DNA from: a virus
Length of the DNA: 64,000 nucleotides
Direction: 5' to 3' (one strand)
IMG/VR virus record: IMGVR_UViG_3300009506_000004
Span: 65,440-129,439 of that record
Shown here: positions 53,603 to 54,202 of the stretch, one piece after another
How positions within the stretch are numbered: the first letter of the stretch is position 1
Layout: the number at the start of each line of letters is the position of its first letter
The notes under the pieces: generated by a model
What the model saw: the letters and a program-made list of their open reading frames with translations, nothing else
Database searches by the model: none
Told to the model about the DNA's origin: nothing
Program-made: the position numbers and the translations under genes

Positions 53603-54202
53603 ATGAATTATAATCTAGTATTTCCGCATGACTTTTCTAGAGAACTTTGGCATGAACTTATGAAACAAAGTAATGACACATTTGAGATTGTTCCTGGAAG
53701 TGTAGAAAATAAGAAGGATCCAAATATAAGTCAATTTTATGTAGCATTTCGTATACCAGAAAATCTAAGTCCTGAAGATATATTTTCTCGACATATTAGA
53801 CCAGCACTCATGTCAATGGCAACAGAGATACTTAAATTTTCAAATAAAGTAAAAGTTGGGCATTTAAATTATGTACCAAGTTTGTCAAAAATGTATACTG
53901 CTGGTGGAATACCTGTACTTGTAACTGTAAGTGGAGACCAAAAACAAGGATATATTTGTGCAATTAGAATTTTAGTTAAACGAGTTAATACCGTTTATTT
54001 TATATTTGGAAATAATTATACTCATGGTTATACATATAGAATAACTGAAACAAAAGAAACAGCTTTAAAAATAGCACTTGAATTAAGAAACAAAATTTTT
54101 AATCCAATTTGCCAAAACACAATCAGGCTAAAAGAAGATGGTACTGGTTTTCTTACTGGACTTAATTATAGAATTGACATCATGAAAGTGGAGATTGAAT
54201 GA
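53603..54202 (+). CDS. Miniature capsid-fold paralog with an extra C-terminal domain (putative)
   Basis: VFPHDFSRE ~ LVPEVWARE; QFYVAFRI..SPEDIFSRHIRPALMSMATEI ~ QHMYAGFVI..SLQDLIQVHLVPGMKAMGNGI. Confidence 0.6.
   Translation: MNYNLVFPHDFSRELWHELMKQSNDTFEIVPGSVENKKDPNISQFYVAFRIPENLSPEDIFSRHIRPALMSMATEILKFSNKVKVGHLNYVPSLSKMYTAGGIPVLVTVSGDQKQGYICAIRILVKRVNTVYFIFGNNYTHGYTYRITETKETALKIALELRNKIFNPICQNTIRLKEDGTGFLTGLNYRIDIMKVEIE

Follow-up and report, generated by a model that had tools for sequence, protein, structure and literature searches.

Reduced forms of the HK97 capsid fold are known from cellular genomes. In the description given by Andreas and Giessen (2021; PMC8346489), the Family 4 'A-domain encapsulins' (DUF1884, PF08967) consist of the HK97 A-domain only, occur in archaea and Bacteroidetes and are paired with enzymes; the same paper describes the A-domain as the part of the fold that forms the facet interfaces and makes the contacts within pentons and hexons. 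Here we describe a phage gene whose product appears to have retained the complementary parts of this fold. The open reading frame (ORF) 53603..54202 lies in a 64,000-nucleotide stretch of viral DNA (the window; C1:65440-129439, the second half of the 129,439-bp virus record IMGVR_UViG_3300009506_000004). On balance, we favour the view that its product (the mini-protein) works as an accessory protein and that its first ~130 residues came from a coat-protein gene of the phage lineage.

Second copies of capsid genes with other roles are known among phages and their satellites. The T4 vertex protein gp24 is a full-length capsid paralogue with a special role. The capsid homologue Ccm of SaPIbov5 (7rwz), as presented in its structure entry, is another such example. 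The mini-protein resembles both in being encoded by a second, capsid-derived gene with another role. As far as their descriptions go, however, gp24 and Ccm have the complete HK97 fold and enter shells, whereas the mini-protein is devoid of the capsomer-forming domain.

Bacterial immunity against phages has capsid proteins as one of its main triggers. In the account of a recent preprint (bioRxiv 10.64898/2026.01.04.697583), Avs7, Avs8, Avs10 and Dsr1 wrap around the HK97 fold; they engage mostly the A-domain and also touch the surface of the P-domain and the E-loop, while Lit and CapRel recognise short capsid motifs. A partial copy of a capsid protein that is incompetent for assembly would readily suggest itself as a decoy, as a sponge or as a poison of assembly.

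The mini-protein compares with these systems as follows. Like the Family 4 encapsulins, as they are described in the above paper, it is a free-standing cut-down HK97 piece of ~100-130 residues. Those proteins have the A-domain alone, whereas in the mini-protein it is the A-domain that is gone and the complementary parts that remain. They occur in cells and are enzyme-paired, whereas the mini-protein is phage-encoded and has no match to PF08967 in Pfam. On that description, the Family 4 encapsulins are its closest published analogue and represent the reciprocal case. The mini-protein would be their structural complement, and either half of the HK97 fold may persist alone. A literature search, in which most subscription journals were not covered, returned no description of an HK97 derivative devoid of the A-domain.

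With the P22-type capsid clade of its own phage (PF11651, phrog_283) the mini-protein has the sequence of the E-loop strand and the spine helix in common, and its predicted N-helix, hairpin, spine helix and second hairpin superpose on HK97-fold chains including those of P22 and CUS-3. It differs from that clade in that ~300 residues (the A-domain and the insertion domain) are gone, an unrelated 68-residue C-terminal domain has been added, the sequence falls below the Pfam and PHROG thresholds, and the gene is outside the head module on the other strand. As the curated models miss it and the defining domain is lost, the mini-protein is best described as a capsid derivative rather than as a member of the capsid family.

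Sequence match of the mini-protein to the major capsid protein

The family of the major capsid gene of this phage (Table 1) is the presumed source of the mini-protein. This capsid protein has 850 relatives at an expect value (E) <= 1e-5, and the solved structures closest to it by sequence are 8zdh_A, 9jwb_A and 8e16_I. The protein starts ~16 residues further in than the consensus of the 39 relatives aligned to it. The capsid profile used below was made from 40 homologues of 53-78% identity.

Relatives of the mini-protein are few. A word-indexed search of 5.8 billion proteins matched it to its own cluster only, while an exhaustive phmmer search of 1.84 billion representatives yielded one distant relative, P0122 (150 aa, E 7.6e-5; BLASTP 5e-16, 35% identity over 136 residues). 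P0122 in turn has three close relatives (77-83% identity), so that four relatives of 147-154 aa, on contigs of 0.8-2.3 kb, are available in all. The five-member alignment covers residues 1-131 of the mini-protein, and residues 132-199 are unique to it. A profile of this family had no match among the PDB sequences at E <= 10, and a synteny search anchored on the neighbouring trypsin-like peptidase gave no relatives. A single GTDB locus for the family (L047) turned out to be a chance motif within an M16 peptidase gene and was discarded.

We compared the mini-protein with the capsid protein at increasing levels of sensitivity. BLASTP gave an E of 0.23, on pieces other than those named in the first-pass annotation of this DNA. 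In Smith-Waterman comparisons (z 3.3-3.8; 1-3 of 300 shuffles reached the observed score), residues 1-15, 21-53 and 54-76 were aligned to capsid residues 19-33, 53-85 and 89-111, respectively, the middle segment pairing QFYVAFRI..EDIFSRHIRPALMSMATEI of the mini-protein with HMYAGFVI..QDLIQVHLVPGMKAMGNGI of the capsid. This alignment agrees with that of the first-pass annotation.

Profile-profile alignment (hhalign) gave a score that climbed steadily with the relatives added. The mini-protein alone matched the capsid profile at P 1.3e-3 (residues 24-76 to capsid 56-111), the mini-protein together with P0122 at P 7e-5, and the five-sequence family at P 2.6e-6 (probability 88.7%, score 48.2; residues 43-76 to capsid 75-111). 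P0122 on its own was placed at the same position of the capsid (P 6.3e-4). In the controls, reversed profiles, in which the helix periodicity is kept, scored 13.9 and 14.2, and 60 column shuffles had a mean score of 15.4 (sd 3.0, maximum 28.5). The first-pass annotation had proposed a comparison of hidden Markov models (HMMs) with the P22 coat family as a check; for the mini-protein, the comparison with the phage's own P22-type capsid profile gave the match described above.

The match was specific in both directions. Translation of the genome in six frames gave 329 ORFs with a minimum length of 60 aa, of which the mini-protein ranked third against the capsid profile, behind the capsid itself and ORF 51049 (see below). 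Two more ORFs were close behind (P 0.0015 and 0.0026), and because of them the single-sequence P of the mini-protein alone is unconvincing. An ORF outside the window, C1:15902-16261, aligned to the N-arm columns of the capsid (P 0.0015), but its identity there is 13% and it has an HExxH-like motif; we judged this to be a chance match. In the reverse search, the family HMM found among the 329 ORFs itself and then the capsid (E 0.0058; HMM positions 26-81 to capsid 56-111), the next match being at E 1.5. When run on 120 capsid homologues, it matched 59 at E <= 1e-3, 94 at E <= 0.01 and all 120 at E <= 1, with the register constant throughout. In five related phage records its matches fell solely within the capsid gene (three records, E 1.5e-5 to 5.2e-5; none in the other two). 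The identities N36/N68, P40/P72, Y46/Y78, F49/F81, I51/I83 and S56/S91 (mini-protein/capsid) are located at capsid positions without variation or with a conservation of at least 90%. Judged by these sequence statistics, the match at the E-loop strand and the spine helix is real.

The first-pass annotation had claimed three ordered matches to the capsid, at its start, at the strand and long helix, and at its terminal strands. The middle one stands, with the statistics and controls given above. The terminal strands gave a weak signal (P ~0.04; discussed below). The proposed match at the start found no support: VFPHDFSRE has four of nine identities, the relatives differ at this place (LLNVDWAGF), and the profile comparisons gave P 0.11 and 0.33 with placement elsewhere.

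Predicted fold of the mini-protein

AlphaFold2 (AF2) without an alignment gave an unusable model of the mini-protein (predicted local distance difference test, pLDDT, 37). With the five-row alignment, the pLDDT was 55.3 and the predicted template modelling score (pTM) 0.54. The latter model has helix 11-22, strands 29-33 and 42-51, helix 57-77, two short low-confidence strands, strands 103-112 and 116-126, and then a separate alpha/beta unit.

We compared this model with 48,161 representative PDB chains using VIA-align and considered the best 50 matches. Phage capsids or encapsulins occupied ranks 1-26 and 43 of these 50 rows, although for some rows the title leaves the capsid chain unspecified (Z 4.5-7.0, 85-115 residues aligned). 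In these alignments, model residues 1/20-126 stretch from near the N-terminus of the target to near its C-terminus, in chains of 236-584 residues. Examples are the T. maritima encapsulin 7k5w (Z 7.0, 11..254 of 264), CUS-3 (Z 6.4, 23..401 of 416), HK97 (Z 5.6) and P22 (Z 5.3, 22..412 of 430). About 100 aligned residues spread over such whole chains is, as far as the predicted model goes, what would be expected of a capsid protein without its A-domain. The A-domain that forms the penton and hexon contacts has no counterpart in the mini-protein: only ~22 residues (77-98) separate the spine-helix match from the terminal hairpin, and the 85-115 aligned residues already span the whole chains.

The remaining seven rows were non-capsid chains, five of them on the C-terminal unit (125-199) and two on the core. 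One of the chains, 1jw3, which we take to be an SHS2 (strand-helix-strand-strand) protein, was aligned over residues 5-126 at Z 4.6, beneath 38 capsid rows. The P-domain itself may be regarded as a strand-helix-strand-strand module.

The C-terminal unit had been missed in the first-pass annotation. Among its ESM Atlas structural neighbours are small uncharacterised phage proteins (TM-score, template modelling score, 0.68-0.70, normalised by the matching row), and VIA-align relates it to unrelated small domains at Z 4.5-5.2, including AcrIE2 (7chq, Z 4.5). This extra domain may be an adaptor.

We consider it quite probable that the mini-protein descends from the capsid and has its fold, at the moderate strength that the profile-profile match, the reverse HMM search and the predicted fold together provide. 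The first-pass reading of the mini-protein as an HK97-fold protein without the A-domain is supported on the same evidence.

Evidence against a capsid origin and alternative explanations

Several observations weigh against this interpretation. The significant alignment spans just 37-53 columns. An HMM of the capsid profile (HMMER) scored the mini-protein at E 10, rank 21 of 329 ORFs. Pfam P22_CoatProtein matched none of the five family members at E <= 1, and the PHROG capsid families matched none of the five at E <= 10; for the mini-protein itself, no Pfam family was found at E <= 0.1. Single-sequence phmmer was weak, with a best E of 0.014 in the database of 120 capsid homologues, where the phage's own capsid (E 0.71) was not the closest. 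The AF2 model is modest, being made from a five-row alignment, and its best Z of 7.0 is at a level typical of models without a true match. Foldseek searches of PDB and BFVD with this model had no match at E <= 1e-3, none of the rows being a capsid, and the ESM Atlas neighbours of the mini-protein include no capsid. Finally, its relatives were not found in the five related phage records, IMG/VR, the JGI metagenomes or 50,697 deposited phages; the gene is therefore rare and dispensable in the lineage.

The terminal strands add little weight. When family residues 78-135 or 90-132 alone were compared with the whole capsid profile, they were placed best at 415-443 (P 0.048 and 0.036), which is weak by itself, with GGIPVLVTV..ICAIRILV in the mini-protein pairing with NDIAMRATM..KVVLDLLC in the capsid. 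The alternative hhalign alignments of the full profiles contained no second collinear segment (second match P 0.33). We also joined 43-column windows of the capsid profile to its N-terminal part (1-111), which alone scored 47.0. For 33 of 39 windows taken from elsewhere the score was 46.1-50.5, while windows starting at 400, 408 and 416 gave 55.3, 57.3 and 52.6 (+5.6 to +10.3 from the terminal strands). An equal gain, however, came from the windows that start at 320, 328 and 336 (capsid window 320-362; 57.0, 53.6 and 54.3), and a three-part join scored 56.8 compared to 57.0 and 55.7 for the two-part joins. Since the gains of the two regions are not additive, homology of the terminal strands is collinear and plausible but not established at the sequence level.

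The most serious alternative is that the mini-protein is an unrelated small alpha+beta protein of the strand-helix-strand-strand type, in which a strand and an amphipathic helix have converged on the capsid sequence and the AF2 model has drifted to the commonest helix-on-sheet fold of phages. We regard this as unlikely. The shortness of the significant match, the failure of general capsid HMMs to see the family, the Z values of at most 7.0 with Foldseek silent, and the alignment of the non-capsid chain 1jw3 over nearly the same residues are all in its favour. Convergence, however, would hardly account for the two-way specificity, as no other of the 329 ORFs matches this capsid region as well and the family HMM finds capsids only. 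The rise of the score with added relatives, the drop from 48 to 14 with reversed profiles and the identities on capsid-invariant columns also speak against it, as does the predominance of capsids or encapsulins (43 of 50) among the fold matches. As the Z values are no higher than those of unmatched models, the signal in the fold comparison is the uniformity of the list and not its height. In the superposition of an AlphaFold model, a check that the first-pass annotation had suggested for the capsid P-domain, HK97-fold chains came up, with a model of modest confidence and with Z values in the range of unmatched models.

Another explanation is decay: a capsid gene would have been duplicated or captured, and the mini-protein gene would be its remnant, with no present function. 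This bears on a second capsid-derived segment, which the first-pass annotation had also missed. When the capsid was searched against its own genome (tblastn), the sole other match was the end of ORF 51049..51294, where a copy of the capsid N-arm has 16 of 27 residues identical (59%, 81% similar; BLASTP E 1e-10; hhalign 97.2%, 3.2e-11). In five of the five related records ORF 51049 matches capsid genes only, and of the six records (this genome and its five relatives) no other one has the copy. At the DNA level it is only ~55-60% identical to the capsid gene; therefore, it is old.

ORF 51049 is located 2.3 kb upstream of the mini-protein gene, on the same strand and in collinear order, and the two could be the debris of one old copy. 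The absence of the mini-protein from the five related records and the small number of known family members (five) would also suit a remnant. Its frame, however, is intact over 199 codons, a Shine-Dalgarno-like sequence (AAAGAAAGG) is present directly upstream, and its stop overlaps the start of the next ORF. Relatives at 35% identity keep the core and the length, and the subgroup of 77-85% identity sits on separate contigs. The N-arm copy in ORF 51049, though old by its DNA identity, is still in frame and well conserved in protein sequence, and nine ORFs without any capsid signal are found between it and the mini-protein gene. A functionless remnant is improbable on this evidence.

As a third explanation, the mini-protein could assemble together with the coat as a minor component of the virion (cement, vertex or assembly helper). 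It would have kept the capsid surfaces that serve the inter-capsomer and E-loop contacts, and capsid homologues that join shells are known, for example from the SaPIbov5 procapsid entry, as far as it describes one with a size-redirecting protein. The mini-protein gene, however, is separated from the capsid gene by 19.2 kb and is on the opposite strand, surrounded by small non-structural ORFs rather than in the head module, and relatives with the same capsid lack it. We regard this explanation as very improbable.

The first-pass annotation had placed the mini-protein in a three-member family of internally deleted capsid paralogues together with ORFs 49781 and 49443. All three ORFs are present where it had located them, but 49781 and 49443 showed no relation to the capsid, to the mini-protein or to one another. 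BLASTP against the capsid gave E 6.3 (49781) and 12 (49443), Smith-Waterman shuffles gave z -1.3 to 0.7, and hhalign gave P 0.12 and 0.22 against the capsid profile and P 0.16 and 0.43 against the mini-protein family, respectively; 49781 matched 49443 at E 0.41. The five related records contain no homologue of either ORF, and the deposited phages contain none of 49781, so no profile could be made for either. All-against-all BLASTP of the 329 ORFs recovered several real paralogue sets but no pair that includes the mini-protein, 49781 or 49443, and in the ESM Atlas the neighbours of the 49781 model are GHKL/HAD-like, none of them a capsid. Of the three, 49443 had been expected to be the likeliest to fail; it did, and 49781 failed with it. 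The best local piece between 49781 and the mini-protein family is the motif that had first been named (LLIEDIWLHHILPVIVDL to LSPEDIFSRHIRPALMSM, 7 of 18 identical, P 0.16), and with the pairwise and profile statistics all at chance the existence of three paralogous capsid copies is refuted at the available sensitivity and can be set aside almost completely.

Proposed mode of action

If the mini-protein is derived from the capsid, it would have kept the N-terminal helix, the E-loop hairpin, the spine helix and the terminal hairpin of the P-domain. It would have lost ~300 residues (capsid 112-415, comprising the A-domain and the insertion domain), with ~22 residues in their place, and gained the 68-residue domain at its end. 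Because the A-domain is missing and, in the description of the fold in PMC8346489, this domain makes the capsomer contacts, the mini-protein would be unable to contact its neighbours at the 5- and 6-fold axes and hence to form capsomers.

As the gene is located in a non-structural plus-strand block, we tentatively take the mini-protein to be a soluble capsid mimic, a proposal that we hold less firmly than that of its descent. It could imitate the outer or peripheral face of the coat and occupy a partner that binds this face. Candidate partners would be a host sensor of the capsid protein, or the coat or scaffold of its own or a rival phage. None of our results favours one of these partners over another, and the decoy or dominant-negative role, which the first-pass annotation had also put forward, is an inference.

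ORF 51049 might be part of the same strategy. Its N-terminus (KRRNFLKLASLA) is twin-arginine-like (TIGR01409 E 0.063, below cutoff), and a TatA-family gene (Table 1) is present 1 kb downstream of it, between 51049..51294 and 53108..53587. The N-terminus of ORF 53108..53587 (LRRDLLKFFAALAVAPISSC) is also twin-arginine-like with a lipobox-like end, and this ORF has no family match. From their sequences, the three genes may represent a phage-borne component of twin-arginine translocation (Tat) together with its own substrates.

A broader, speculative scheme would be that this phage lineage splits its own coat into accessory genes. One would be the A-domain-less mini-protein with an effector or adaptor domain, and the other the N-arm copy of ORF 51049 behind a twin-arginine signal, near TatA. 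The pieces would act as mimics, blunting capsid-sensing immunity or sabotaging the assembly of rivals. We consider the scheme as a whole unlikely. If true, it would constitute an undescribed class of capsid-derived counter-measures.

Genomic setting

The virus record has direct terminal repeats. In the window, the large structural genes, including the major capsid gene, are on the minus strand at ~10-46 kb, while small ORFs form a tight, operon-like array on the plus strand at 46.4-59.7 kb. The GC content is 0.29-0.31 in this array compared to 0.31-0.40 in the structural block. The only family matches in the array are a dCMP deaminase (46897), an exonuclease (48351), the trypsin-like peptidase (48866), the TatA homologue (52335), DUF2695 (58433) and an HNH-AP2 endonuclease (59326). 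A promoter scan of the DNA gave 92 sites versus 88.6 +/- 9.7 in shuffles, which is not in excess. Contigs matching this DNA came only from the probable source run and, in the form of two identical 151-nt contigs, from a run of a second study. The lineage is uncultured; in the closest deposited phages, capsid identity is <30% and confined to the N-terminal half (tblastn), and blastn of the capsid gene against deposited phages gave no match. The features discussed here are listed in Table 1.

Table 1. Positions of the capsid-related segments and neighbouring features (window coordinates unless a record position is given)
Feature	Position	Strand	Remark
Major capsid gene, 458 aa, P22-coat type	33023..34399	-	Pfam PF11651 P22_CoatProtein 4.1e-26; phrog_283 7e-51
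Capsid residues 56-111, E-loop strand and start of spine helix	34067..34234	-	region to which the mini-protein aligns
Capsid residues 416-443, terminal strands	33071..33154	-	weak match to mini-protein residues 99-125
Putative mini-capsid gene, 199 aa, intact ORF	53603..54202	+	accessory block
Mini-protein residues 24-76, predicted beta-hairpin and long helix	53672..53830	+	probable homologue of capsid 56-111
Mini-protein residues 43-76, best-supported core of the capsid match	53729..53830	+	hhalign, reverse HMM
Mini-protein residues 99-125, predicted beta-hairpin	53897..53977	+	weak similarity to capsid terminal strands 416-443
Mini-protein residues 132-199, extra C-terminal alpha/beta domain	53996..54199	+	not in the four relatives; without capsid counterpart
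Capsid N-arm copy, residues 54-80 of ORF 51049..51294 (81 aa)	51208..51288	+	equivalent to capsid residues 3-29
TatA/B/E-family gene, 56 aa	52335..52505	+	Pfam PF02416 E 2.1e-9, above cutoff; TIGR01411 4.1e-11, below its cutoff
HNH-AP2 homing-endonuclease-like paralogue	59326..59724	+	
HNH-AP2 homing-endonuclease-like paralogue	572..1438	-	
HNH-AP2 homing-endonuclease-like paralogue	G000:C1:13968-14321		
HNH-AP2 homing-endonuclease-like paralogue	G000:C1:38438-38776		

Some other features of the genome were noted. The capsid start is preceded, at a distance of 34 nt, by the end of a Cys-rich endonuclease VII-like gene of 257 aa (34399..35206, minus strand; PF02945 E 3.5e-4, below cutoff). The four HNH-AP2 homing-endonuclease-like paralogues are dispersed in the genome and are 50-73% identical.

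Duplications are also present in the minus-strand block. The tandem duplicates 21125..21862 and 21875..22603 are 78% identical over 246 residues, and residues 52-100 of the second one have a weak likeness to the capsid insertion region 254-300 (hhalign P 0.0026). The neighbouring large genes 24962..27004, 27014..29074 and 29077..30507 have domains in common (54% over 458 residues and 69% over 234 residues) and are probably diversified fibre or receptor-binding proteins. Another tandem pair, 36841..37140 and 37149..37448, is 44% identical.

In the plus-strand array, BLASTP did not pair the neighbours 55764..56426 and 56417..56770 at E <= 0.01. By eye, a motif recurs in them, as ..EEQAKGA..VL.. 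twice in the first ORF and as the variant ..VEAKAIQKV.. in the second, which suggests a repeated small module.

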